Positions 25,020-39,518 of a stretch of 64,000 bases of DNA are shown one piece after another. This DNA comes from Candidatus Omnitrophota bacterium (GTDB taxonomy: Bacteria; Omnitrophota; Gorgyraeia; Gygaellales; Profunditerraquicolaceae), in assembly GCA_030691865.1 (NCBI GenBank), contig JAUYDL010000029.1, positions 4,721-68,720 of the forward strand, written 5' to 3'. Position 1 is the first letter of the stretch; every line of letters starts with the position of its first letter. A program made the translations under genes and the position numbers. The notes below the pieces were generated by a model that saw only the letters and a program-made list of their open reading frames with translations, searched no databases and was not told the DNA's origin.

Positions 25020-25033
25020 CTTTCTCCTGCAAT

Positions 25034-25090
25034 AAAAGGGGACGGTTCTATTTTTCCCGAGTCCAGTTCTAGAAAAATAGAACCGTCCCC
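25034..25090. repeat. REP-like element, copy 8.
   Basis: AAAAGGGGACGGTTCTATTTTTCCCGAGTCCAGTTCTAGAAAAATAGAACCGTCCCC. Confidence 0.8.
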
Positions 25091-25101
25091 TTTTATTTTA
25101 T

Positions 25102-26172
25102 TTAACTTAATAACCTTGCCGCTGCATCAAACACCGCATCAACACTAACCTGCCTCAAACACTCCCTATCCTTTTCACAAGCCGGCATACGGAAATTCTT
25201 ATAACACGGCCGACAATCCATATCCCATTTTAAAACTACATGGTTCCTATTCTCAGGATACGGCCCATAAACCAGCTCGCTTACCGGGCCAAATATCGAA
25301 ACTGTCTTTACCCCCAAAGCCGCTGCCATATGCATCGGCCCGCCATCATTAGTAATCAGCAAATTACAATTTTTAATTACTGCCGGCAAAATCTCTAAGC
25401 TTGTTTTACCCACCAAATCTATCGGCTTATTGACCATGGCATGCACGATTACCTCTGCAATCTTTCGCTCTGATTCATCTCCCAAGATTACCACTTTGGC
25501 GCCGCACTTATCAATCAACTTATTCGCTACTTGGGCAAACTTTAATGCCGGCCAATGCTTTATCGCGGCATCCTTACCCCAACTACCGCCGGCACCGGGG
25601 AAAATACTAATAACACAATCAGTTTCTTCGATTCCAACTGAAGCCAAAATATTTTTTGCCTTCAATTCATCGTTTAAAAGAACGGTCAAAAACAGATTTT
25701 TATCATTAACCGGAATATTTAAGAATTTAAGCAGCTCTAAATAATACTCCACCACATGCTTATCATGATAACCATCCAGATCAACACGCTCAGTAAGAAA
25801 CCTACCCCTCCCCTTATAATTGAATCCAATCCGCTTCCTAATCCCGATTATTTTTGCCAATAGACTATAGCGGTGATCAAGAGAGAAATCAAGACAAATA
25901 TCAAAATGCTCTTTTTTTATCTCCCAAATGAGTCTAATGGCGCTCCATAATCCCTTAAAAAAAGACTCCTGATAAATTTTCTTAAGGTCCCCACGCGAAA
26001 GAGCAAAAACTTTATTAATTTGGGGGTTGTTTTCCAGAATCGGCTTAACCCGCAAATTTGACCAGTAACCGATAAAACTATCCGGATGCTGTCGCTTCAG
26101 CGCCTTGATTACCGGTGTGGTAAATAAAACATCCCCAATGCCGAAAGGATTAATAATTAATATTTTTTTCAT
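25102..26172 (-). CDS. ADP-heptose:LPS heptosyltransferase (GT9).
   Basis: MKKILIINPFGIGDVLFTTPVIKALKRQHP... with the GT9 C-terminal domain. Confidence 0.75.
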   Translation of the reverse strand: MKKILIINPFGIGDVLFTTPVIKALKRQHPDSFIGYWSNLRVKPILENNPQINKVFALSRGDLKKIYQESFFKGLWSAIRLIWEIKKEHFDICLDFSLDHRYSLLAKIIGIRKRIGFNYKGRGRFLTERVDLDGYHDKHVVEYYLELLKFLNIPVNDKNLFLTVLLNDELKAKNILASVGIEETDCVISIFPGAGGSWGKDAAIKHWPALKFAQVANKLIDKCGAKVVILGDESERKIAEVIVHAMVNKPIDLVGKTSLEILPAVIKNCNLLITNDGGPMHMAAALGVKTVSIFGPVSELVYGPYPENRNHVVLKWDMDCRPCYKNFRMPACEKDRECLRQVSVDAVFDAAARLLS

Positions 26173-26849
26173 ATGAGGACGTCGGCCAAATCCGATTGAT
26201 CGCTATCTTTCAACACATCAATAATTCTCTTGCGTAATTTAGGAGAAAAACCTATAAAGAAAAACTTCAATTTATCTGCTTCACCTTTATCAAGCAATGC
26301 CCTTATAATCCTAATTGCCATATCTAAGTCTTTGATCTTTTTGTCCTTTTTTGGCCGCCTTTCTGATACAATCAACTTATGTAAAGCAAAAAGGGCAGGA
26401 TGAGGCAAATTAATTCTAATGTCCTCAACTACAATATTTATAAGTTTCGCTGTAAGTAAATTAAGAAGCCTTAAGGGTTGAGCATTAATCCCAAGCTGGC
26501 CCAATTTATAAGGCTTATTTAAACCCGCGCCTTTCTCTGTTACCAGAAACTCCAGAATAAGCTCAGGATGATATAATTGGATATAACCGTCAGACCCCTT
26601 AAAATCAATAACAAAACCAAGCCCATCCAACAATTTTTCAATATCAATTTTGTTTTTTATTACAAGTGGCAGGGGAACAAATAAATCAAGGTCTCTTGTT
26701 GTTATAGAAGTGACATACTCTACATCTGAAAAATATTCTTTATAGAAAGGAACACACCAACTCCCAACAAGAACTAAATGTTTTAATATGCCGGAACTAT
26801 CCAGTCTTTTTAAGACTTCAACGCATAATTTATACTGGCTGCTTTCCAC
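26169..26849 (-). CDS. Pol-beta-fold nucleotidyltransferase (AbiEii/GSU2403-like), the toxin-like partner of the upstream small ORF.
   Basis: LVLVGSWCVPFY...TRDLDLFV fits the hG[GS]...[DE]h[DE]h pattern. The protein is a paralog of the 31180..31971 product. It overlaps the upstream ORF by 20 nt. Confidence 0.5.
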   Translation of the reverse strand: MESSQYKLCVEVLKRLDSSGILKHLVLVGSWCVPFYKEYFSDVEYVTSITTRDLDLFVPLPLVIKNKIDIEKLLDGLGFVIDFKGSDGYIQLYHPELILEFLVTEKGAGLNKPYKLGQLGINAQPLRLLNLLTAKLINIVVEDIRINLPHPALFALHKLIVSERRPKKDKKIKDLDMAIRIIRALLDKGEADKLKFFFIGFSPKLRKRIIDVLKDSDQSDLADVLI

Positions 26850-27159
26850 GTAAAGTACTCCGTAAAAACTTAATCTGTTTATTTAGTTTGCTTAAAGACT
26901 TACGGTAACTCGCGCGTTTAGACTGCAAAGACTTATATTTTCTAACTTCATCAGGCGAAAGCTTGCCCTTATAATTGTATAGAAACTTACCATTATGCCT
27001 TTGAACTAAATAAAAATAATAGTGTCCTTTAATTTTTTTACGGGCGAGACACCACTTAGGAAGCTTATCAAGTTCCTCTATATATCTTTTTTTCATACGC
27101 AGAGAGTTACCCAATTCTTCTGACAACACACCCTTAATTAAGCCTTTCATATAGCACAC
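26830..27159 (-). CDS. Small basic protein, a putative antitoxin or regulator partner of the nucleotidyltransferase.
   Basis: 109 aa and Lys/Arg-rich. It is translationally coupled to the NTase gene and has a palindromic operator immediately upstream. Confidence 0.4.
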   Translation of the reverse strand: MCYMKGLIKGVLSEELGNSLRMKKRYIEELDKLPKWCLARKKIKGHYYFYLVQRHNGKFLYNYKGKLSPDEVRKYKSLQSKRASYRKSLSKLNKQIKFLRSTLRGKQPV

Positions 27160-27163
27160 TCCT

Positions 27164-27205
27164 GTTAACCAACAATGTATATAATAATATATATTGTTGG
27201 TTAAC
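27164..27205. promoter_or_regulatory. Perfect 13-bp inverted repeat flanking an AT-rich promoter-like core; a putative autoregulatory operator.
   Basis: GTTAACCAACAAT-gtatataataatatat-ATTGTTGGTTAAC, lying 5 nt upstream of the ORF start at 27159. Confidence 0.45.
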
Positions 27206-27261
27206 TTATGTCAATTAATAATAAACCCCTATTAACAGGATGGTAAAGTCAAATTGGGCAA

Positions 27262-28644
27262 TTACCTTTTAAAATCATCTTCGAATCTTTCAATATCATC
27301 CTCAGCTAGATAATTTCCTGTTTGCACCTCCACAATTCTCAAGGTCTGATTAGTGGTATTTTCTAAGCGATGCTTTTTGCCTTTGGGTATATAAATGCTC
27401 TGGTTGCTATGCACCAGGGAAACTCCCCGGCCGCTTACCACCTTGGCCATACCGGAAACCACTACCCAATGCTCAGCGCGGCTTTTATGCCGCTGTAAAC
27501 TTAAACGTTTATGCGGCGTAATTTCAATAAGTTTAATCTTAAAATCGATGCCTTGCTGTAAAACCGTAAATGATCCCCACGGCCTTCTCTCCGTTAAATG
27601 CACCAGGTGCTCTTTACGGTTTAACGACTTCATCAGGCCCACCAACTTCTTAACATCTTGGGTCCTACCCCTATCACAAACCAACAGGGCATCCGGAGTA
27701 TCCGCGATAATCGTATCTTTAATGCCAATGGTCGAAACCAGCCGATTACCCTTTGAGAATACACACACGCCTTGACTATCTAAATTCAGAGCATCGCCAC
27801 TAACAATATTTCCCTTTTTGTCTTTCGGGAAGATTTCCGATAAAGCCTCCCAACTGCCTAAATCCGTCCAGTAAAAATCAGCAGGAATAAGCGCGATACG
27901 CTTAGAATGCTCCATAATTCCATAATCAACAGATATAGCATCAATTCTCGGCCAAATCTTAGGAATATCATTTACTGAATTAATCAGCCGCAGGTTAGTA
28001 TACAATCCGGGTAAATATTTTTTAACCTCTTCCAGTAAAACCGAAGCCTTCCAGATAAACATCCCGCTGTTCCAGAAAAATTTCTTGTTCTTAAAATATT
28101 CCTTTGCCTTATTTAAATCCGGCTTTTCCAGAAACTTCTCGACTTCCCAATAACCATCTTTTTTTTTATCTACTTTTATATAACCATAACCTATAGATGG
28201 CGCACTGGGTTTAATGCCCAGCGTAACCAAAAGATTATTTTTAGCGCAAGCGATTGCTTTTTTAAACGTCCTCTTAAAATTCTCAATATTCTTAATATAA
28301 TGGTCAGAAGGCAAAACCAAAAGCACCGCATCTTTATCAATCCGGCTGATTAATTTTGCGCACAACCCCACTGCCGGAGCAGTATTCTTGCCCTGCGGCT
28401 CTAAAATTATATTCTTATCCGGAATGCGAAACTTGGTAATCTGGGCTTTAACTTCATAAAAATAAATTTTATTGGTAATAATATAAGTATGCGCCGGGTC
28501 CACCACGCCTTTTAATCGCTGGATGGTCGACTGCAACAAGCTCTCCTGGCCAATAATTTTCATAAACTGCTTTGGCTCAAGCTCGCGTGAAAACGGCCAA
28601 AACCTGCTTCCTACTCCACCGGCTAAAATAACAGCGTATGTCAT
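27262..28644 (-). CDS. manC: Mannose-1-phosphate guanylyltransferase / mannose-6-phosphate isomerase (bifunctional, with a cupin C-terminus).
   Basis: MTYAVILAGGVGSRFWPFSRELEPKQF... and a C-terminal cupin (...HRLENTTNQTLRIVEVQTG). Confidence 0.85.
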   Translation of the reverse strand: MTYAVILAGGVGSRFWPFSRELEPKQFMKIIGQESLLQSTIQRLKGVVDPAHTYIITNKIYFYEVKAQITKFRIPDKNIILEPQGKNTAPAVGLCAKLISRIDKDAVLLVLPSDHYIKNIENFKRTFKKAIACAKNNLLVTLGIKPSAPSIGYGYIKVDKKKDGYWEVEKFLEKPDLNKAKEYFKNKKFFWNSGMFIWKASVLLEEVKKYLPGLYTNLRLINSVNDIPKIWPRIDAISVDYGIMEHSKRIALIPADFYWTDLGSWEALSEIFPKDKKGNIVSGDALNLDSQGVCVFSKGNRLVSTIGIKDTIIADTPDALLVCDRGRTQDVKKLVGLMKSLNRKEHLVHLTERRPWGSFTVLQQGIDFKIKLIEITPHKRLSLQRHKSRAEHWVVVSGMAKVVSGRGVSLVHSNQSIYIPKGKKHRLENTTNQTLRIVEVQTGNYLAEDDIERFEDDFKR

Positions 28645-28720
28645 TTCTCAAACTCCTATCTTAGAGACTGTCCCTAAGCTTTCCATCATTCGTTAAACCA
28701 CATCTTTATTAAGTACGAGA

Positions 28721-29581
28721 TTACGGCTTTTTCAAAATCTCGTTAAACCGCTCAAAAACTTTATCGAGGTTGAAACTCTCACCTACCCGGATAACAGGTA
28801 TCAATTCTGTTTCTATCTGCTTGTGAAGCAATTCTTTTGATTGTTGATCCAAACCGAAATTATGAGAATAATTCGCTCTGTATTTCTCAGCTTCAAGCTT
28901 CTTTTTGAATATGGAAAGGAAGTGCCTGTCTTTAAAGTCAAACTTGGCTTCCGATATAAACCATAAGTCATAATAGTCGCGAATTGCCACATCTTTTCTT
29001 GTGATTGCGGCTTTGAGTTTTTCTGCCACGGCCTCGTTTAATGTAAGCGATAATATCTTATTTTTAGGAATTAAATCCTCTCCCGTAAATGGGTCCTTAT
29101 AAAAATGCGTGATTACATTATGAACGGGCTTGTCGATAGGAGTTTGCCTGAGTGAAATTTCTAGTTTTATCTTCTCATCCTTTCCTGAGATAAATGACGG
29201 ATAGAAAATGTTGAACACATACTGAGTAGAATTATTAAATCCTTCTCCTTCAGGCCTTTCACTTTTTAACTCCAGTAGTTTCAGCAATTCTGGCATCTTT
29301 TCTCTTATTGGGGTGATTGCACGGGATCGCCTAGAACGGGTTTGGAGGCCTTCAGGGTTAAAGTATGTAAAGTCAATGTCTTCGCTTAACCTGTGATAGT
29401 TAAGGTGAATCTTATTTAAAAGCGTCCCGCCTTTAAAAACGATTTTATCGCTTAAATGTGATTCGACGCTGTTTAAGATAAGCGTTAAATAATAATCTTT
29501 TTCGATGGTCTCGAGCCTAAAGTTATATTTTTCCGCAATAAACGGTATTATTTTCTCAAGCTTATCCCTATCCATTGACAA
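28721..29581 (-). CDS. AbiEii-family nucleotidyltransferase toxin (type IV TA / abortive infection, DUF1814-like).
   Basis: IEKDYYLTLIL...IVFKGGTLLNKIHLNYHRLSEDIDFTY. Confidence 0.75.
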   Translation of the reverse strand: MSMDRDKLEKIIPFIAEKYNFRLETIEKDYYLTLILNSVESHLSDKIVFKGGTLLNKIHLNYHRLSEDIDFTYFNPEGLQTRSRRSRAITPIREKMPELLKLLELKSERPEGEGFNNSTQYVFNIFYPSFISGKDEKIKLEISLRQTPIDKPVHNVITHFYKDPFTGEDLIPKNKILSLTLNEAVAEKLKAAITRKDVAIRDYYDLWFISEAKFDFKDRHFLSIFKKKLEAEKYRANYSHNFGLDQQSKELLHKQIETELIPVIRVGESFNLDKVFERFNEILKKP

Positions 29582-30356
29582 TAATTCTCCATCTTTTATC
29601 AGTTTTGCCTTTTTTTGCCTCTGTATCGTATAAGAAAGAATGCCCTTTTATTCCCGCGTCGACTTTGCTAAGCAGTCTTTGGGACACTCCAAGCCTTTCC
29701 AGGAAATATCCCATACGCCTGCGAATGATACAAACGGGATATCGCGCGACATAATCCACGAAGACTGCCATATCCATATTGCTAAGCTGTTCAGTTAAAA
29801 TACTAAATCCTTTTTTCACACCATAAAAATCAAACGCGTCTATCAACGCGCGTTCCTTAGAAGCAAAAACAATATCCTCCTTATCTATTCTGCGCGTTTC
29901 CAAGCCATACATTCTATTGGGCAGCACCTTGATAAGCTTATACCTGATACCGCCAACTTTTTTCTCAAGTGAATATTTTTCATTCACTACATGTATCATT
30001 TGCGCGACTTGATCGGTAAAGCCATATGAATTAAAAACGCTGGAGTATCCTATATAATAATTCGCTCCTCTGGCTAACGCTTTTGCAATCACATATTCGT
30101 TACCCGCCCACTTGCCTCCGGGAGCTTTCATCGGAATAAACAAATACACATTTTTGACAATATTCCTTAACCTATTTTTAATCAAAAGCCGCCTGATAAG
30201 ATAGTCCACCTTGCTTTCATCGTCATAGAAAGAAATAATATCCGCGCGAGTATAGACCTCTTTACCCTCATACTCTAACCTAGCCAAAAGGCCTATTTCG
30301 TTCGGAGTAAGCCCATTATATTTGTTTACTTTTGGTTTCATATTTCTGCCTCCCAA
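29568..30356 (-). CDS. AbiEi-family antitoxin / transcriptional regulator.
   Basis: 262 aa with an N-terminal wHTH-like region and ...IVFASKERALIDAFDFYGVKKGF.... It overlaps abiEii by 14 nt. Confidence 0.65.
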   Translation of the reverse strand: MGGRNMKPKVNKYNGLTPNEIGLLARLEYEGKEVYTRADIISFYDDESKVDYLIRRLLIKNRLRNIVKNVYLFIPMKAPGGKWAGNEYVIAKALARGANYYIGYSSVFNSYGFTDQVAQMIHVVNEKYSLEKKVGGIRYKLIKVLPNRMYGLETRRIDKEDIVFASKERALIDAFDFYGVKKGFSILTEQLSNMDMAVFVDYVARYPVCIIRRRMGYFLERLGVSQRLLSKVDAGIKGHSFLYDTEAKKGKTDKRWRIIVNG

Positions 30357-30374
30357 TGCACTTATCTAAAACTA

Positions 30375-30416
30375 AAAATAATATACTCTTGAGTGGGTTA
30401 TTTGTCAATAAATATT
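30375..30416 (-). promoter_or_regulatory. Sigma70-like promoter TTGACA-N17-TATATT upstream of the abiEi/abiEii pair.
   Basis: The minus strand reads ATTTATTGACAAATAACCCACTCAAGAGTATATTATTTTTAG. A GGGAGG RBS sits before the start. Confidence 0.35.
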
Positions 30417-30486
30417 GTTGCAGTAATTATCCTTCCAGGACTCTTCTTTACAATAATAACCACAGACGGAATTATCGTTAATTATT

Positions 30487-31176
30487 TTATAGCCTGCCCG
30501 GTGTTCCTCCGTATAAGTCCAAAGTTAAATCTGATTGCCAATATTCCTTAGTATCAACATTCATTATGGTAAGTTTCCCTGACCATCCGGCTCCGGTATC
30601 AATATTCCAAACATTACACACATGAATCGGTTGAAAAGTATTATAAAGTTCAGTTGGTGTATGACCGACAAAGATATCCTTGTATCGGCCCAATTTACAG
30701 TTGCGCCCCTCTGCTTGCATCTTCCACGCCATATCAAGAAGCCTCCTATCCCAAACCAATGTTTGCGCGCTATGACTCGAAAGCGATATGTCCGGATTAA
30801 ACCCGCCATGCACGAAAACCTGATCATCACGCTCAATCCAAAGATGTCCGCTCTTTAGAAAATCGATGTGTGCCTTCGGCATAGGGCCACCGTTATATGA
30901 CGCTATTGTTCGATCACCGCCTTGACTCGTCCATATCTCCGGCTTATCCCCGCGCAAAGCCCAATCCAGAGCCCACATATCATGGTTACCAATAACCAAA
31001 TTGCAGTGTTTAACCTTTAAAAGCTCATCGATGCTTTGCTTGACATCCGGATAACCATCACACACGTCACCTAAAACGATTAAGCGATCTTGCTTGTAAT
31101 CAAATTTCGAGCGTTCAAAACACTGCATTAGCGCCTTGTAAGCGCCATGAATATCACCAATAGCGTATGTCTTCAC
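30487..31176 (-). CDS. Calcineurin-like metallophosphoesterase (PPP-family Ser/Thr phosphatase-like).
   Basis: MKTYAIGDIHGAYKAL...LIVLGDVCDGYPD...VIGNHDMWA. Confidence 0.75.
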   Translation of the reverse strand: MKTYAIGDIHGAYKALMQCFERSKFDYKQDRLIVLGDVCDGYPDVKQSIDELLKVKHCNLVIGNHDMWALDWALRGDKPEIWTSQGGDRTIASYNGGPMPKAHIDFLKSGHLWIERDDQVFVHGGFNPDISLSSHSAQTLVWDRRLLDMAWKMQAEGRNCKLGRYKDIFVGHTPTELYNTFQPIHVCNVWNIDTGAGWSGKLTIMNVDTKEYWQSDLTLDLYGGTPGRL

Positions 31177-31179
31177 TCA

Positions 31180-31971
31180 TCAATCCTTTGCAATGCTTCT
31201 CTTGAGCCTCTTAAATCTATCAAATATGTCTTGGCGCACATCATGGATATATTCATCAGGACCGTTTTCCTGTTCTACCAAAAGACAGCCTCGACTTGAA
31301 ACCCTTTCAAAAAACTTGTTTATATTATCCGGGACGCCCATTAAATACCCTTTTTCTCTGTACTGGGATATTTCCTTCAAAATCAAGTCAATATCAGGCG
31401 CGTACCGCAAGATGAAGTACATATAATACAAATCTTTAGCCTGTTTTTCCTTGTTCTCCCTATCGATAAAAGTCGCTCCCTTGTGATACAAAAAAGCTGA
31501 CGGTTTCGGACAATTAATAAGATAGCCTTTGTTCTTTTTCATAGCGTAAATGTTTATCGATATCCGGTGTTTTAAGAGGAAATCAAATTTGTCGATTTTA
31601 TTTATTTGTATCTGCTGGCCTACCATTTTCTCGATCGCCTTGATATCCGCGGTAGGATAAGTAATAAACTCTACCGGGACTTTTTCTTTATACAGCACAA
31701 CAGGAAACATCCTGTCCATCTTCAGATGACGTTCTTTGTAATCCAAAGAAGAAAGTGTTTCAAAAATTGTCTTTGAATAATCTCCGGTAACGGATTGATC
31801 TACGCCAAAATCTATATCAACCGTAGTCACCGGATTTCTGACGGATGTTTTCCAAATAAAATTTGAATAGATATACGGCATCCATCCACCGACAAGCGTG
31901 AGGTCAGGAAGATAATCACGCATGTCTTCAAGCACGTTAAAAAACACTGCTTCAATTTTTTCAAGATTCAT
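31180..31971 (-). CDS. Pol-beta-fold nucleotidyltransferase, a paralog of the 26169..26849 product (AbiEii/GSU2403-like).
   Basis: LTLVGGWMPYIY...TTVDIDFGV. It overlaps the upstream regulator gene by 11 nt. Confidence 0.5.
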   Translation of the reverse strand: MNLEKIEAVFFNVLEDMRDYLPDLTLVGGWMPYIYSNFIWKTSVRNPVTTVDIDFGVDQSVTGDYSKTIFETLSSLDYKERHLKMDRMFPVVLYKEKVPVEFITYPTADIKAIEKMVGQQIQINKIDKFDFLLKHRISINIYAMKKNKGYLINCPKPSAFLYHKGATFIDRENKEKQAKDLYYMYFILRYAPDIDLILKEISQYREKGYLMGVPDNINKFFERVSSRGCLLVEQENGPDEYIHDVRQDIFDRFKRLKRSIAKD

Positions 31972-32656
31972 ACAAACCCGTCCCCTTCTCTTCTAAAACT
32001 TTTTTCAGATAATCAGCGTGCTCGCGCCCGCGGGGCTTATAATTATAGAGGTCTAAATAAAGCTGCAAATTAGAAACAACCTTATATCCCTTTATTGCCT
32101 GAGCGCCATAAAATACGCTCTTCTTGTAATGCGGGCGAATAATATGAATGTTCCCACCTCTTACAAGCTCCTTTAAATCAAGTTGTTGGCGTAACTCGAG
32201 AACATCCTTTTTCCAGTCTTCAGGTTCCAAATACAGGCATACCTGATCCGTTACTACAAAAGAAGTTACCAAATTGGCGCCAGAATGGAGTGTGAACGCG
32301 TATTGTTTGTCTTTCAGATAATCTTTAAGCTTCGGTAAAATATTTTTATCTGGAGAATAATAGGTATCGACTTCGTTTAATTCAAAGCGGTACTCTGTTA
32401 CCCAATCGCTGATTAGCTCATCTATATTCGTAAGAAGCGCATAGCTATTCGGCCCACGTTTGACCCGCTCGATGTAGCCCTTTTTTGCCATGGTTTCAAG
32501 CGCTCCTTGTGCCAACCCAATGCTCACCCCATTATCTCCTGTAAAGTCGCGCGTAACCCATTTCTTCTGTGGATCAGACAGCATCTTCCTCAAGATAAAA
32601 GTCGCTTTATCAGCAAAAATATTTTTCATATTCGTTGGGTTATTCATAATGTTCAC
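31961..32656 (-). CDS. wHTH regulator, AbiEi-like antitoxin partner of the 31180..31971 nucleotidyltransferase.
   Basis: 231 aa with an N-terminal wHTH-like region (SIGLAQGALETMAKKGYIERVKRG). It is coupled to the NTase gene. Confidence 0.45.
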   Translation of the reverse strand: MNIMNNPTNMKNIFADKATFILRKMLSDPQKKWVTRDFTGDNGVSIGLAQGALETMAKKGYIERVKRGPNSYALLTNIDELISDWVTEYRFELNEVDTYYSPDKNILPKLKDYLKDKQYAFTLHSGANLVTSFVVTDQVCLYLEPEDWKKDVLELRQQLDLKELVRGGNIHIIRPHYKKSVFYGAQAIKGYKVVSNLQLYLDLYNYKPRGREHADYLKKVLEEKGTGLYES

Positions 32657-32710
32657 TCCTTCTTAATGTTCATTGATTAGTAAACAATATATACCCAGTG
32701 AACATTAATG
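32656..32710. promoter_or_regulatory. Three direct repeats of TGAACATTA, spaced about 22 bp apart. The first overlaps the start codon; a putative operator for the 231-aa regulator.
   Basis: The minus strand reads GTGAACATTAATG ... AATGAACATTAAG ... GTGAACATTATG(start). Confidence 0.4.
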
Positions 32711-32736
32711 TCAAACGTTTTTATTACATGCTCTTT

Positions 32737-32804
32737 TCCCCACGGCCCCCAGCGCCGCGCCTCCACCTTCCCGCTCCACCTTCTAAAATAACTTCGTATG
32801 TCAT
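32737..32804 (-). pseudogene. Chimeric gene-fragment scar: a manC 5' end of about 10 codons fused to heptosyltransferase 3'-end-like sequence.
   Basis: The minus strand ATGACATACGAAGTTATTTTAGAAGGTGGAG matches the manC start ATGACATACGCTGTTATTTTAGCCGGTGGAG. The adjoining CCCCACGGCCCCCAGCGCCGCGC matches 33838-33862. Confidence 0.45.
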
Positions 32805-32904
32805 AAAAATTGATTATATCATGCTCAACTCAAAAATCACATATCTAAGCATGAAATCCAACTATCCTTTTTTTTAAGGTCACAATTTGTGACCTTAAAG
32901 ATTC

Positions 32905-33085
32905 TACCTCTCCCCACGGCCCCCAGCGCCACGCGGTTTTGCCCGGCAGGTCATTCCTGAACAACGCCACCACCGGCATCCCCACGACGCAACAGCCAAA
33001 TGCATCGGCCCACTGTCGCAACTCACCAGTACCCTGCACTGCGTAAAAATCTGCGCTAACTCTACTAAAGTAGTCTTATTAAGAT
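32905..33085 (-). pseudogene. Degenerate duplicate, roughly 80% identical, of the 3' end of the GT2-GT9 heptosyltransferase gene.
   Basis: 32911-33010 aligns to 33838-33940. The 64-aa ORF 32845..33039 encodes VALFRNDLPGKTAWRWGPWGE, compared with PVIALFRNDLPGKTAQRWGPWGEG at the C-terminus of the 33751..35355 product. Confidence 0.5.
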
Positions 33086-33150: not shown

Positions 33151-33543
33151 TTATACACTCAGTTCGCGGGGAATAAAGTCTATGCTGAGTCTTGCTCTTA
33201 AGGCCGCGGCAAGCCTCGCAAGGGTTTTGAGATTAATGCGTGCATTTCTTAAATCCTCCAAGCGCGAGATGGTCTGTTGGGTAGTGTTAACTTTTTTTGC
33301 TAATTCTGCCTGGCTTAAATGCCTCATTTGCCTTAGCTGAGTGATCTTGTAGCCTATTTGCAGCCTTGCCACTTCTTCGTCGTAGGCTTTTCTAAACCCA
33401 GGGCTCTTTCTAAGCTCTTCTTCAATATGCTGGTTTATTGTTTTGGGAACTATTATTTTTCTTTTCATAAGAATCACCTCTATAGACTCTTCAACTGGCC
33501 GTTTATTTCTTTCGTCCTCGTAGTATATGGCTTTCTTTTTCAT
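33151..33543 (-). CDS. XRE-family HTH transcriptional regulator.
   Basis: The C-terminus reads ITQLRQMRHLSQAELAKKVNTTQQTISRLE. Confidence 0.65.
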   Translation of the reverse strand: MKKKAIYYEDERNKRPVEESIEVILMKRKIIVPKTINQHIEEELRKSPGFRKAYDEEVARLQIGYKITQLRQMRHLSQAELAKKVNTTQQTISRLEDLRNARINLKTLARLAAALRARLSIDFIPRELSV

Positions 33544-33565
33544 ACTGACTCTTTAGCCTACTTAA

Positions 33566-33596
33566 AATATACGCTATTTGTGGTGTAATGTCAAGA
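33566..33596 (-). promoter_or_regulatory. Sigma70-like promoter TTGACA-N17-TATATT for the XRE gene.
   Basis: The minus strand reads CTTGACATTACACCACAAATAGCGTATATTTT, about 25 nt upstream of the start at 33543. Confidence 0.35.
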
Positions 33597-33750: not shown

Positions 33751-35355
33751 CTATATTATTCTTTCTTTAATCCTGCAAAGTACTTCCTCAACGCTTATAT
33801 CCTCTAAATTACTCTTCTCTATAACTATATGCCCCTCTCCCCACGGTCCCCAGCGTTGCGCGGTTTTACCCGGCAAATCATTCCTGAACAACGCTATCAC
33901 CGGAGTCCCCACAGAGGCAGCCAAATGCATCGGCCCGCTATCCCCTGAAACAACTAAACTGCCACGTTTCAATAATGCCGCTAATTCCACTAAACTTGTC
34001 TTATTAATCAAATCTATAGTCCCTAAGGGGACTGTCCCCAAAGGGGACTGTCCCCGATCTTCAACTCTTCCCACAAGCACAACCTTCACTTTCATCTCCT
34101 GTATAATTCTCTGCGCTAATTCGCCAAACCGCTCAATTGGCCACTGTTTAACCGGATCACTGGTAAAAGGATGGATGATTACAATTTTTTGATTAATAAA
34201 ATATTTATATAAATTATCATTTACTTTAATCGCTAGTGACAAATCCTGCGTTTTTGCCCCCAGCAACCCTACCAACTCCAAATTACAATCTACCTCATGC
34301 CGGCTACCTTGATGCTTGGTATCTTTTAATTTATGGGTAAGCAAAAACCCCCATTTCCTATCATAACCCACACGCACAGGGATGCCCGCTAAAAAAATAC
34401 TCTGATGTGCTTCTTTAGTAGGATTTAGGACAACACAGAGATCAAACCTGTGCTTCCTTAATCCTTTCCTGATTTGGTCCCAAACTACTACCTGATCAAC
34501 ACATTCCACCGCAGTCGCCAACTCACTAACTGTAGAATTTACCGCTAAAGTAAGCTCTGCCTGCGGATATCTCTCTTTCAACGCCCGAATAGCCGGAATA
34601 TTCAACAAAAACTCTCCAAACCGGTCATTACGTATGACGAGTATTCTCTTGATCATGGAACACCCCACGGGCAAGCCCGTGGTACCTAAATTTACCCCCT
34701 GACGTATAATAGCTTGCCCATCCAGTGACATCCCCCGAAGCAGTTCTTTCTTCGCATTCATCTGCGAAGGGGGATAGAAAATAGGCACTTCCATTACGCG
34801 CATTTTTTTTCTTAAGGCTTTAGTTAAAATCTCAAACGCAGTATCCGCGCCTTTTAATTCCGGCGCTAAATTTAAAAAACTTTCCCTGCGCATAAGCTGA
34901 CAATGCGTAAACCAGTCATACAACTTAACACCAAATAGAATATTTAATATCAGGGTTGAGAAATAATTTTTAACTTTCGCCAACCCCGAGGTCCCTTGAT
35001 GCATTTTGCTAAAACGTGCACCCAGAACGATATCCGCCCCTGAATCCTTGATCGCCCCCAAAAGCTTAAGATAATTACCAGGGTCATACCTTAAGTCCCC
35101 ATTCTGGATGAGAATAAATTCACCGGTGGCATTCTGTAACCCCGTGCGCACCGCAGCCGCCTTTCCGCGATTACTGACATGGTGGATAACCTTTAAGCTA
35201 TTAAGAGAAAGCCCCCTTAAGATTAACTCAGTATTATCCTTAGAGCAATCGTTAACCACGATAATCTCTTTCTCAACAGAAAGATTGCTAACCTTATTGA
35301 TTACTGCTTCAATAGTTTTCTCTTGATTATAAACCGGCAAAATTACAGAAATCAT
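33751..35355 (-). CDS. Bifunctional fusion of a GT2 glycosyltransferase (N-terminus) and a GT9 heptosyltransferase (C-terminus).
   Basis: The N-terminus reads MISVILPVYNQEKTIEAVINKV...IIVVNDCSKDNT (GT2). From about residue 235 it reads ILVIRNDRFGEFLLNIPAIRALKERYP... (GT9, RfaF/WaaC-like). Confidence 0.7.
   Translation of the reverse strand: MISVILPVYNQEKTIEAVINKVSNLSVEKEIIVVNDCSKDNTELILRGLSLNSLKVIHHVSNRGKAAAVRTGLQNATGEFILIQNGDLRYDPGNYLKLLGAIKDSGADIVLGARFSKMHQGTSGLAKVKNYFSTLILNILFGVKLYDWFTHCQLMRRESFLNLAPELKGADTAFEILTKALRKKMRVMEVPIFYPPSQMNAKKELLRGMSLDGQAIIRQGVNLGTTGLPVGCSMIKRILVIRNDRFGEFLLNIPAIRALKERYPQAELTLAVNSTVSELATAVECVDQVVVWDQIRKGLRKHRFDLCVVLNPTKEAHQSIFLAGIPVRVGYDRKWGFLLTHKLKDTKHQGSRHEVDCNLELVGLLGAKTQDLSLAIKVNDNLYKYFINQKIVIIHPFTSDPVKQWPIERFGELAQRIIQEMKVKVVLVGRVEDRGQSPLGTVPLGTIDLINKTSLVELAALLKRGSLVVSGDSGPMHLAASVGTPVIALFRNDLPGKTAQRWGPWGEGHIVIEKSNLEDISVEEVLCRIKERII
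34027..34055. repeat. In-frame tandem copies of the palindrome GGGGACTGTCCCC, which look like collapsed REP cores.
   Basis: GGGGACTGTCCCCAAAGGGGACTGTCCCC encodes GTVPLGTVPLG inside the GT2-GT9 fusion. Confidence 0.5.
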
Positions 35356-37457: not shown

Positions 37458-39518
37458 CTACAACAAAATCTTATAGATCCGAGCTAACGAGTTACTAAAA
37501 ACTAATTTGAAAGATTCAGCATGTCCAGATGCCCAATCATCTTCTATGGGGAATTTCTTTAAATCATTGGATTCGTTATTTAATTTATGCGGAAGGGCAA
37601 TAAATAAGTAATCCACCTTATCTTTTCTTAGATTATTTAACCAGCTGCCATAATTTTTTTCCTTACGATAAAGGCCATCAGCATAAAAATGCGCCAGCGG
37701 AGGCTTATCATTCACCGAAACATATAACACGCTGTTTTTTAGCTTACTTCCAAAAAATGGATAAAACTCACTGCGTCCAGTATAAGCAATTTTCATTCCA
37801 CTACCGGTATTTTCATTAAGCCATTTCCAAGCGCGGCCAATATCAACCTGCGCTGATTCCTTTCCTTTAAAGGATATCGCATAACGATTAAATTCTTCTC
37901 TGTTGTATTTCTCGTTTAAAATAAATAAAACAACAAAAGTAATAATAACCATCACTAACAACGCCTTTAGTGAAAGTATGTTTCTAAGATTGCGCATTAA
38001 ACTCTTTCTAAAAATAAATGCAATAGCAAATAACAATAAAGCTAACAAAAATGAGAAGATTAATTCATTTCTTTTTGCCAATTCAGCCGCTGAACTAAAT
38101 ATGCAGATAAAACCTAAAAAGGTTAGATATTTTTTACCGTATTTAAATTTATCTAAAAATACTGCCACAGCGATCAACCCTATACCTAAATACGGAAATA
38201 AATACCTTATCCACAGAGCTTTAATGACAAAAAAATACATACAAAACATTATTAACGGCAGCATAAATAACAAAATATATTCAATACTATAATTAAACTT
38301 GCGCTTAAAGAATGTGGCCACGATAAAGGGTATTATGGTCCCTGGAATAACAAAAGCAATAAACTGTAAACCCAGCCCTTCGCTAAAAAACATATCCTTA
38401 ACGCTAAACTGTTCCCAAGGAATAAATAGCCTGCTAAAACCGGCTTTATCGATAATCCCAGGGAAGATTGTCCTGCCAAACAATGATACCGAAACCGGAT
38501 ACAATGGATTCCCCGTAAGAATAAATGTTCTAAAGTAGCTAAATGATCCAAAAATAAAAAACGTAGCCGCAACAACAGAAAGAACAAAAAATAAACTTCT
38601 ATAATTTTCTTTCTTGGCATTGCTGATTATAAAATAGGCAGCTAAAGGCAACAATGTAACTGACCAAAAAACATTTAAAATCTTGGTTCCAACAAATATC
38701 CCTAATGTAACCCCTAAAATAAGAGCGTTTTTGTAATTGAATTTCTTGTTCAAAATTAATAAATAATTTAAAACCATCAAAAATAAAGCAGCGCACATAA
38801 CATCAATCTGCGTGCCATTCCTGATTTGCTTAAACACATTAGGTATAATGGCCCATAAAAAACTAACCAACAAAGCCGTGTTGTTTTTTAGAGAGTACTT
38901 TCTTAATATTGAATATATAGCCAATATGCCCAATAGATAAAATACAGCCTGCCCGACATCAGCGATAAAAGCATTTTTAAGCGGAAGCATCCACCAAAAA
39001 AACAATAGCTCAGCATTCATAGGATAGTAGGTTAAAGCGGTCAAATCTGCTGAGATTGGCCAAGCACCAAAAACAGAGATCGGATTTATAAGGTTACCGT
39101 TCTTTAACCAAAAGGCAGGAAAACTAAGATGATACTGATGGCTCTCCGGGCAAATCGGAGGATTAATAAGATTGACCCAAAGCTTTATAATAAAAAAACC
39201 CAAAAATATCGCTATTGCTAAAAGCAATATCTTATTTTCAAATATAAAATTTACCTTAGGTATTTTAAATTCAAAACGCGGTTTTCTCCGAGTAAATAGA
39301 TACACTATTAAAAACACCGTTAAATGTAAAAAAATAACATTTGGTAGATAAAGTATCTGCGAGAGTCCCAAAAATAATTCTACAATAATAACCTGGGCAA
39401 AAAAAAGTGTAAACCACGAAAGACAAAAATCCGCCAACGTCTGTTGTAAAAATAAAATAGAACTAAAATAATAAGAACTCAATCCCACTAAAGCATTAAG
39501 TAAAATAAATACTACCAT
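37458..39518 (-). CDS. Large polytopic membrane protein, a putative GT-C-fold glycosyltransferase (ArnT/PMT/YfhO-like).
   Basis: 686 aa with many transmembrane helices. It lies adjacent to a polyprenyl-phosphate-type GT2 gene. Confidence 0.4.
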   Translation of the reverse strand: MVVFILLNALVGLSSYYFSSILFLQQTLADFCLSWFTLFFAQVIIVELFLGLSQILYLPNVIFLHLTVFLIVYLFTRRKPRFEFKIPKVNFIFENKILLLAIAIFLGFFIIKLWVNLINPPICPESHQYHLSFPAFWLKNGNLINPISVFGAWPISADLTALTYYPMNAELLFFWWMLPLKNAFIADVGQAVFYLLGILAIYSILRKYSLKNNTALLVSFLWAIIPNVFKQIRNGTQIDVMCAALFLMVLNYLLILNKKFNYKNALILGVTLGIFVGTKILNVFWSVTLLPLAAYFIISNAKKENYRSLFFVLSVVAATFFIFGSFSYFRTFILTGNPLYPVSVSLFGRTIFPGIIDKAGFSRLFIPWEQFSVKDMFFSEGLGLQFIAFVIPGTIIPFIVATFFKRKFNYSIEYILLFMLPLIMFCMYFFVIKALWIRYLFPYLGIGLIAVAVFLDKFKYGKKYLTFLGFICIFSSAAELAKRNELIFSFLLALLLFAIAFIFRKSLMRNLRNILSLKALLVMVIITFVVLFILNEKYNREEFNRYAISFKGKESAQVDIGRAWKWLNENTGSGMKIAYTGRSEFYPFFGSKLKNSVLYVSVNDKPPLAHFYADGLYRKEKNYGSWLNNLRKDKVDYLFIALPHKLNNESNDLKKFPIEDDWASGHAESFKLVFSNSLARIYKILL

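Follow-up and report, generated by a model that had tools for sequence, protein, structure and literature searches.

We analyzed a 64,000-nt stretch of DNA from a Candidatus Omnitrophota bacterium (assembly GCA_030691865.1, contig JAUYDL010000029.1, positions 4,721 to 68,720 of the forward strand; hereafter the window), in which a set of surface-glycan genes is interrupted by an island of three predicted toxin-antitoxin (TA) cassettes. Each cassette, referred to here as module 1, 2, or 3, consists of a regulator or partner gene followed by an overlapping nucleotidyltransferase gene. All open reading frames (ORFs) of the island lie on the minus strand, and coordinates are given as positions in the window (Table 1). 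A first-pass annotation, made without database searches, had described eight ORFs here, with overlaps of 20, 11, and 14 nt within the pairs; all eight are present on the minus strand with the lengths and at the positions given, and the motifs it quoted (IEKDYYLTLIL, FKGGTLL, SEDIDFTY, LVG[GS]W, and T.D[IL]D) occur in the translations. The island extends past the end assigned to it earlier, to about position 33594, the added part consisting of an orphan helix-turn-helix (HTH) gene and pseudogene scraps. Because the 20- and 11-nt overlaps are also found in homologous pairs of other genomes, they are not chance overlaps of ORFs. Shine-Dalgarno spacing and the way homologues have been called place the most likely start of the 109-aa ORF of module 1 at the ATG at 27150, which gives a protein of 106 aa; on the same grounds the 231-aa ORF of module 2 probably starts at the ATG at 32647, which gives 228 aa.

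Table 1. Features of the island, with positions in the 64,000-nt window
Feature	Position (strand)	Description
Module 1 partner ORF	26830-27159 (-)	109 aa; 20-nt overlap with NT226 gene
NT226, module 1 toxin candidate	26169-26849 (-)	226 aa; PF12281 ('GSU2403 family') nucleotidyltransferase
Module 1 promoter and palindromic operator (predicted)	27164-27214 (-)	TTGACA-17-TATATT; arms 27164-27182 and 27187-27205
manC	27262-28644 (-)	Resident glycan-operon gene; TIGR01479 at 2e-149
AbiEii, module 3 toxin	28721-29581 (-)	286 aa; DUF1814 nucleotidyltransferase
AbiEi, module 3 antitoxin/regulator	29568-30356 (-)	262 aa; 14-nt overlap with abiEii
Module 3 promoter (predicted)	30380-30408 (-)	TTGACA-17-TATATT, 11/12 match
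Metallophosphoesterase, third gene of module 2	30487-31176 (-)	229 aa; PPP family; GTG start
NT263, module 2 toxin candidate	31180-31971 (-)	263 aa; PF12281; MenT/AbiEii-type fold; invariant T50-x-D52-x-D54
Module 2 antitoxin/regulator (putative)	31961-32656 (-)	231 aa; PF09952 (AbiEi_2/COG4861); 11-nt overlap with NT263
Module 2 promoter and operator (predicted)	32648-32714 (-)	TTGACA-17-TATATT and four 9-nt boxes
GT9/manC junction pseudogene scraps	32737-33082 (-)	Direct repeats D1, D2, D5, D6
Orphan XRE/HTH_3 regulator	33151-33594 (-)	130-aa ORF; own promoter 33566-33594, 11/12 match

Module 3 is, on its Pfam and PADLOC matches, a genuine canonical AbiEi/AbiEii system, as the first-pass annotation had proposed. 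Its AbiEii matches PF08843 at 1.1e-30 (107.7 bits vs a cutoff of 22.5) and the PADLOC AbiEii model at 3.4e-39; its AbiEi matches the PADLOC AbiEi model at 1.9e-42, NCBIfam TAA_AbiEi at 4e-5 (below cutoff), and Pfam AbiEi_1 at only 0.1. The S-E-D-I-D stretch of AbiEii corresponds to the phosphoacceptor and catalytic site, its Ser aligning to the Thr of R-S-T-V-D-I-D in PDB 9hlo_B. AbiE of Streptococcus agalactiae and Lactococcus, originally reported as a type IV TA and abortive-infection system, has been reclassified as type VII in a 2026 preprint (bioRxiv 10.64898/2026.01.19.700257). In module 3, likewise, the gene of an AbiEi antitoxin overlaps that of a PF08843 toxin in a bicistron with its own promoter, and S-x-D-x-D occupies the phosphoacceptor position. 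Our comparison of module 3 between genomes covers one place, the same junction in a related contig (L153), where a different AbiE-type pair is found.

The nucleotidyltransferases of modules 1 and 2, NT226 and NT263, both exceed the gathering cutoff (26.3 bits) of PF12281 (NTP_transf_8), NT226 with 73.7 bits (2.7e-20) and NT263 with 44.3 bits, and precomputed annotations of their database homologues list this domain too, along with the NCBI name 'GSU2403 family'. At 25% identity (pairwise E 6e-7) the two are, as far as sequence comparison goes, paralogues, in agreement with the earlier view. They differ from AbiEii in falling below the PF08843 threshold (NT263 reaches 13.8 bits, E 0.057, and NT226 has no match), and NT226 has no match in PADLOC or NCBIfam. 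The hidden Markov model (HMM) and PADLOC searches for AbiE families that had been suggested as a check were thus significant for module 3, with modules 1 and 2 not recognized by PADLOC. The description of the island as three AbiEi/AbiEii-like pairs holds for module 3 and for the regulator of module 2, which belongs to PF09952; it does not hold for NT226 and NT263, which are PF12281 enzymes, or for the 109-aa partner, which has no AbiEi match.

PDB sequence searches with NT226, NT263, or the family profile returned nothing meaningful, and only fold comparison was informative. A PF12281 enzyme compared in this way matched the fungal nucleotidyltransferase-like protein 5uvd (12.3), TglT/MenT3 (6j7n, 11.7), MenT1 (8an4, 11.2), MenT4 (6y56, 10.1), and JHP933 (4ok0, 9.3). 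The PF12281 enzymes combine a Pol-beta nucleotidyltransferase core with a family-specific C-terminal helical part, the feature by which the MenT/DUF1814 class is recognized, and hhalign of the PF12281 and AbiEii alignments pairs their catalytic cores at 83.7% probability (E 8e-6), with T-x-D-x-D placed on S-x-D-x-D. Across 36 PF12281 sequences from both subfamilies, G28, W30, Y35, T50, D52, D54, E101, N124, H163, K164, R171, K176, and D180 are invariant, and the motifs common to NT226 and the other subfamily are G-[GS]-W, T-x-D-x-D, E, HK..R, and K..D. Of the catalytic motifs of the class, the alignment shows hG[GS]...DxD and a third carboxylate as well as motif III (K-x6-R) and motif IV (+Dxx(D)), although in motif IV only the first acidic residue is conserved, and the invariant residues match the DUF1814 motif set of Dy et al. 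(PMC3985639). T50, found in 36 of 36 sequences, lies two residues before the first catalytic Asp and aligns to the Ser/Thr of AbiEii: T50-x-D52-x-D54 corresponds to R-S-T65-V-D-I-D of AbiEii (9hlo_B; bioRxiv 10.64898/2026.01.19.700257) and to S-E-D-I-D of the AbiEii in the window. It is the Ser/Thr at the position equivalent to T50 that serves as phosphoacceptor in AbiEii, MenT1, and MenT3 (PMC7205606, PMC11375011, bioRxiv 10.64898/2026.01.19.700257). Because fold class, profile alignment, motif set, and the T-x-D-x-D position agree, PF12281 enzymes very probably work like MenT and AbiEii, though they are not PF08843 members. Relative to the MenAT systems of Mycobacterium tuberculosis (MenT1, MenT3/TglT, MenT4), the identity is only 11-14% and the antitoxin families are others. 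PF12281, an uncharacterized family with hundreds of members across phyla of which we found no mention in the searched literature, is in this way tied to the MenT/AbiEii toxin class.

The partner proteins of modules 1 and 2 differ from each other, and their being paralogues was ruled out by comparison. The 231-aa regulator of module 2, of the winged-helix type, matches PF09952 at 9.7e-10 (39.4 bits vs a cutoff of 21), and a PF09952 regulator stands directly upstream of the NT263-type enzyme in essentially all of the approximately 60 loci with room for one. In this, module 2 resembles the COG4861-COG4849 pairs of Dy et al. (2014, PMC3985639), in which a COG4861/PF09952 regulator likewise precedes a predicted nucleotidyltransferase; the published partner is a DUF1814 protein (COG4849), whereas that of module 2 is a PF12281 enzyme, COG4849 and PF12281 being set apart here by family label only. 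The 106-aa partner of module 1 is small and basic, with a predicted model consisting of a helix, a three-stranded sheet, and a long helix. No Pfam family was found at threshold in eight of eight members, nor an AbiEi family match or HTH, and the precomputed DUF6788 matches are weak. It is presumed to be both antitoxin and autoregulator, and it defines a novel family of small partners. A 109-aa ORF in one of the loci with a module 2 homologue (L004) proved unrelated to it. Modules 1 and 2 share with AbiE the order of a regulator and an overlapping nucleotidyltransferase, inverted repeats at the promoter, the fold class, and the catalytic motif set; module 1 departs from AbiE in that its partner lacks a winged HTH and an AbiEi family match, and module 2 in having a third gene.

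A promoter scan of the coding strand gave exactly four matches of 11/12 to TTGACA-17-TATATT, which precede the orphan HTH gene, the 231-aa regulator, AbiEi, and the 109-aa partner, with none before the phosphoesterase or manC. The promoter region of module 2 is 77-86% identical across the approximately 60 loci and contains a predicted operator made up of four copies of a 9-nt box (AATGTTCAC/GTGAACATT), two per orientation, the last of which sits between the Shine-Dalgarno sequence and the ATG. These boxes are kept in an 11-sequence alignment that includes metagenome-assembled genomes (MAGs) of Clostridia, Actinomycetota, and Spirochaetales together with an Asgard-labelled MAG. We note that many of the loci compared in this work come from MAGs or metagenome contigs, so that taxonomic labels (for example, that of the Asgard MAG) may reflect binning errors. 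In module 1 the promoter overlaps a palindrome whose 19-nt arms are 95% complementary, and the arms co-vary in homologues (L153, L161, and L087; for example, GTTATACAACAA/TTGTTGTATAAC), which is the pattern expected of an operator that co-evolves with its DNA-binding protein. From these sequence features, each cassette is predicted to be an independent, self-regulated unit, with a predicted operator in modules 1 and 2. There is no strong promoter before manC, and the NT226 stop overlaps the start of the heptosyltransferase gene (ATGA), as the manC stop does in a relative with an empty site; the LPS (lipopolysaccharide)-core genes downstream of the insertions may consequently now be transcribed from autoregulated cassette promoters.

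The metallophosphoesterase, which the first-pass annotation had placed merely between modules, instead begins 3 nt past the NT263 stop and has no promoter of its own; this arrangement makes it the third gene of module 2, translationally coupled to the NT263 gene. The same order of regulator, enzyme, and phosphoesterase is found in L004-7, where the phosphoesterase is 79% identical. Of 59 species-level loci of the NT263 family, 10 have it too, and these all fall within the group of 30 at 67% identity or more. A reciprocal search with the phosphoesterase as sole query against metagenome contigs, with upstream genes classified by local HMMs, returned 80 loci (69-91% identity). A PF12281 enzyme is directly upstream in 27 of these and a PF08843 AbiEii in 19, so that 46 of 80 have a nucleotidyltransferase immediately before the phosphoesterase, usually with a 4-nt overlap; AbiEii lies within 1.5 kb in a further 8, too little upstream sequence is available in 12, and a nucleotidyltransferase was not found in 14. 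Five of these 14 retain the regulator and a decayed enzyme gene: in L089-92 and L111 the phosphoesterase and a PF09952-type regulator are intact, and the nucleotidyltransferase is cut to its last 33-45 codons; these may be derivatives that have lost the toxin. After dereplication at 98%, 61 phosphoesterase clusters remain, at least 45 of them linked to a nucleotidyltransferase. The partners belong to at least seven lineages, namely two NT263 subfamilies, the NT226 type with its 106-aa partner, and AbiEii proteins of 304, 289, 299, and 338 aa. Partner types are thoroughly intermixed in a neighbour-joining tree of the phosphoesterases, where the copy in the window clusters with others located downstream of an NT226-type enzyme and of an AbiEii enzyme.

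Two further arrangements were seen among these loci. The NT226-type module lies directly upstream of the module with NT263, regulator, and phosphoesterase in L095 (1-3821) and L132 (285-4421), which indicates a tendency of the two types of PF12281 cassette to cluster outside the window as well. In L073 (2256-4687), the 338-aa AbiEii is followed by a tandem of a 182-aa Metallophos protein and a lambda-phosphatase-like gene.

The phosphoesterase matches PF00149 at 6e-13 and is, by its motifs and profile matches, a PPP superfamily member resembling lambda phosphatase and PrpA. Among NCBIfam models it matches the PrpA-type Ser/Thr phosphatase over its full length at 4e-17 and ApaH at 9e-20, both far below the equivalog cutoffs. 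The family profile matches lambda phosphatase 1G5B over its full length (E 1.6e-12), with which, as with Escherichia coli PrpA and PrpB, it shares a size of approximately 220 aa and the metal-binding motifs GDxHG, GNH[DE], HGG, and GH, while PDB matches to ApaH cover only the N-terminal 80 residues. GDIHG, GNHD, HGG, and GH are invariant in the family. The enzyme in the window differs from lambda phosphatase, PrpA, and PrpB in its place in toxin operons and in its second PPP motif, which reads GDVCDG[YF] in nine of nine sequences and lacks the Arg of GDxxDRG.

The glycan context of the island is real, as seen from the flanking genes: a GT9 heptosyltransferase II lies on one side and a fusion of the glycosyltransferase families GT2 and GT9 on the other, and further out are Wzy_C, polysaccharide deacetylase, B12-radical-SAM enzyme, methyltransferase, GT2, and DegT genes. 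Related Omnitrophota contigs, found via homologues of NT226 and the heptosyltransferase, are syntenic from Wzy to PriA and differ exactly at the island, with flanks 65-94% identical. In one of them (L159; heptosyltransferase 81% identical) the site is empty, GT9, manC, and heptosyltransferase genes running uninterrupted with 4-nt overlaps. Another (L158, 85%) carries Bro-N and RhuM/Fic genes and lacks manC; a third (L160, 80%) has a Fic gene, an AAA_14 gene, and module 1; a fourth (L153, 73%) has a different AbiEi_4 and AbiEii pair before manC together with module 1; and in a fifth (L156, 65%) module 1 follows the heptosyltransferase gene rather than preceding it. The claim of a variable island with manC embedded in a surface-glycan locus is in this way borne out. 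Since related genomes show an empty site and differing cargo at the same junctions, the GT9/manC and manC/heptosyltransferase II junctions are, on comparative grounds, a recombination hot spot with variable cargo, the empty site included. Orthologues of manC, 71-86% identical, stand at the same place in the related loci, and we take manC on this evidence to be a resident gene, not mobile cargo, that is now stranded between cassettes.

The history of the cassettes is separate from that of their surroundings, as far as identities can tell. The NT226 homologue of L153 is 87% identical and that of L160 66%, against 73% and 80%, respectively, for the heptosyltransferases of these two contigs, and module 1 is absent from L158 and L159, which have higher heptosyltransferase identities; by sequence, the identities of module 1 are incongruent with those of the flanks. 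In more distant homologues of module 1, which occur in unrelated contexts (Elusimicrobia among them), the partner gene is still present and still overlaps the enzyme gene by 20 nt. For module 2, a scan of species-representative genomes gave 65 loci in more than 10 phyla, where only one (L026) weakly matches the GT534 glycosyltransferase (28%) and none match manC or the heptosyltransferase. A cassette of the NT263 family was also seen in an Asgard-archaeon bin (L048, a Promethearchaeia MAG), and a 'bacterium' MAG of the same study (L049) has equal match coordinates and identities; the archaeal cassette may be a binning artefact. A phage origin was considered and rejected: no NT263 relatives were found on IMG/VR contigs, and the phosphoesterase relatives there are distant (22-55% identity) and never beside nucleotidyltransferases.

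The island has also left debris, with a GT9 3' fragment at 32907-33082, a hairpin at 32873-32899, a manC 5' fragment at 32767-32804, and a second GT9 scrap at 32737-32760. These appear to be leftovers of the ancestral GT9/manC junction, the manC part being its initial 38 nt. In blastn comparisons the relatives L160, L158, and L159 have GT9 genes that match the GT9 scrap at 81-83% identity, as against 76% for the window's own GT534, which points to import by homologous recombination through the conserved flanks. The orphan HTH ORF, with HTH_3 at 2.4e-9 and weak HipB/HigA-like antitoxin matches, is possibly an antitoxin remnant of a decayed type II module. It adjoins the terminator of the GT2+GT9 gene, and its HTH domain begins at about residue 60. 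The N-terminal 25 aa had given the impression of a Gp49/HigB toxin remnant, and an HMM scan of the fragment was empty. GC content gives no clear island signal (0.36-0.42 in the island vs 0.40-0.44 in the flanks), there are no tRNA genes in the window, and a scan of 24 ORFs within 25102-46585, which was not aimed at integrases or transposases, showed neither.

We consider it probable, on the whole of this evidence, that the locus is an insertion hot spot in an LPS-core/O-antigen operon that holds three intact, self-regulated TA cassettes, an orphan HTH regulator, and debris. The island is then a TA/defence islet of the ordinary kind found at hot spots, modules 1 and 2 being new variants of AbiE/MenAT, and Omnitrophota surface-glycan operons serve as exchange sites for TA cassettes. 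By homology with MenT1, MenT3, and AbiEii, the partner protein would bind the cassette DNA and repress its promoter, the nucleotidyltransferase would extend tRNA 3' ends with nucleotides and so stop growth, and the freed toxin would abort phage infection or stabilize the locus. The partner would probably neutralize the toxin by causing it to autophosphorylate the invariant Thr/Ser located two positions ahead of the first catalytic Asp.

The cassettes could also be selfish addiction modules at a permissive, recombination-prone site that give no phage protection, in which case their co-location with phage-receptor genes would be a by-product of frequent exchange at the locus. Turnover and decay are indeed visible in the scraps at 32737-33082, in the orphan HTH gene, and in the decayed nucleotidyltransferases of L089-92 and L111, and among the genes that relatives carry at the same junctions are Fic/Doc-type and RhuM genes of the sort commonly seen in mobile DNA. 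AbiE, however, was discovered as an abortive-infection system and is protective in its native setting (PMC3985639), although S. agalactiae AbiE gave no anti-phage phenotype in E. coli under the conditions of a 2026 preprint (bioRxiv 10.64898/2026.01.19.700257). All three module 2 genes are moreover under strong purifying selection across phyla, with identities of up to 94%. We regard selfish addiction without protection as somewhat unlikely; it is compatible with the hot spot of TA cassettes proposed above and differs from it only in the benefit to the host.

The third gene of module 2 suggested to us a more specific proposal. MenT3/TglT, MenT1, and AbiEii are neutralized by phosphorylation of a Ser/Thr beside the catalytic Asp, and dephosphorylation restores the activity of AbiEii (PMC7205606, PMC11375011, bioRxiv 10.64898/2026.01.19.700257). 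Which phosphatase reactivates the toxins in vivo is left explicitly open in those studies, where only housekeeping PP2C enzymes were tried and proved slow and non-specific (PMC7205606; bioRxiv 10.64898/2026.01.19.700257); in mycobacteria the sole candidate is the housekeeping PP2C enzyme PstP, acting slowly and in trans, whereas here a PPP enzyme is encoded in the operon. The Ser/Thr two residues before the catalytic Asp is kept in all partner lineages of the phosphoesterase that were inspected, namely the close and distant NT263 subfamilies, the NT226 type, and the 304-, 289-, and 299-aa types of AbiEii. Being operon-encoded and compatible with many lineages that share this Ser/Thr, the phosphatase is the natural candidate for the reactivator. 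It would strip the silencing phosphate and re-arm stored toxin without new synthesis, making module 2 a three-part phospho-switch. We advance tentatively, from sequence comparison, that the phosphatase is a dedicated reactivator of MenT/AbiEii-class toxins in such a three-component switch. Because it has been swapped among at least seven toxin lineages, it may be a generic activator plug-in for the toxin superfamily, of which PF12281 would be a new tRNA-modifying branch; this joint reading is possible, if doubtful. Either way, it offers a concrete, testable candidate for the toxin switch-on left open by the MenT3/TglT (2020) and AbiEii (2026) work. We found no AbiE system whose operon encodes a phosphatase, and no paper on an operon like that of module 2, in the searched literature, the coverage of which is incomplete, so that this is no proof of novelty. 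Three-gene TA operons as such are reported for the KKP (kinase-kinase-phosphatase) module of Pf prophages (PMC11341870), HipBST, and toxin-antitoxin-chaperone systems. In KKP, too, a phosphatase reportedly counteracts phosphorylation within a defence-related module (PMC11341870), but there it serves as antidote to toxins that are kinases, whereas here the phosphatase is proposed to activate a phospho-silenced toxin.

The phosphoesterase might alternatively be a repair enzyme or second antidote that acts on nucleic acid or nucleotides and lowers the cost of a leaky toxin, much as DarG reverses DarT. Possible reactions are the trimming of tRNA 3' ends that the toxin has extended, the removal of 3'-phosphates or 2',3'-cyclic phosphates, and the hydrolysis of diadenosine tetraphosphate (Ap4A) or a nucleotide product. 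The partial similarity to ApaH, through NCBIfam and through PDB ApaH structures over the N-terminal 80 residues, would agree with this, as would the phosphodiesterase and 2',3'-cyclic phosphodiesterase activities of lambda phosphatase itself, reported in PMC2190708. The Arg by which PPP enzymes contact phosphoprotein substrates is missing, a harmless helper enzyme is easily co-expressed constitutively, and the partner toxins have not only a phospho-site but also a product class in common. Nevertheless, the best full-length match is the protein Ser/Thr phosphatase 1G5B, ApaH being matched in its N-terminal motifs only; no exonuclease-type features were seen, and every inspected partner lineage retains the Ser/Thr. 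Repair or a second antidote thus seems to us quite unlikely as the role of this enzyme.

That NT226 and NT263 are instead housekeeping enzymes of the glycan pathway, needed by the LPS locus for sugar-nucleotide or lipid-linked nucleotidyl transfer, is very improbable: module 1 does occupy the same manC/heptosyltransferase junction in L153, L160, and the window (and a nearby place in L156), and the NT226 stop is coupled to the heptosyltransferase start, but the reading is refuted by the lack of module 1 in the two closest relatives and the occurrence of the cassettes in unrelated contexts of other phyla, module 1 in Elusimicrobia and other bacteria, and sits badly with its incongruent identities, its own promoter and co-varying operator, and a fold class of MenT toxins rather than sugar nucleotidylyltransferases. 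The first-pass annotation had itself named enzymes of a sugar pathway conserved in all relatives as the outcome that would tell against it, and this is not what the relatives show.

Several points weigh against our interpretation of the cassettes and of the phospho-switch. The toxicity, antitoxicity, and toxin phosphorylation of the cassettes are putative, their role in phage defence is something that we only infer, and the E. coli result with S. agalactiae AbiE does not favour it. PADLOC recognizes neither the module 1 nor the module 2 pair. T50 is assigned as phosphoacceptor position by alignment, and the Thr may be conserved for catalysis alone. The phosphoesterase is, by its occurrence in 10 of 59 loci, accessory to NT263-family cassettes, and the decayed nucleotidyltransferases of L089-92 and L111 suggest either that it has a function independent of the toxin or that toxin decay is recent. 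The phosphoesterase tree was built by plain neighbour joining and has no support values. The Arg-less second motif indicates that its substrate may not be a phosphoprotein, and constitutive co-expression of phosphatase and toxin would need extra control that is not visible in the sequence.

Three minor observations concern the neighbourhood of the island. The spacer between the heptosyltransferase and DegT genes (25031-25097) contains an inverted repeat whose 26-nt arms match perfectly around a 15-nt loop, far exceeding the stem length of an ordinary terminator. The 534-aa GT2+GT9 protein is encoded by one ORF in the window (33751-35355) and corresponds to two adjacent genes in L159 (7051-8625), for a 225-aa GT2 and a 281-aa GT9, which may represent either a fusion in the window or a split in L159. 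Further along (37458-39518), the glycan locus encodes a 686-aa protein without a Pfam domain, and a protein 35% identical to it is found at the equivalent place in L158.

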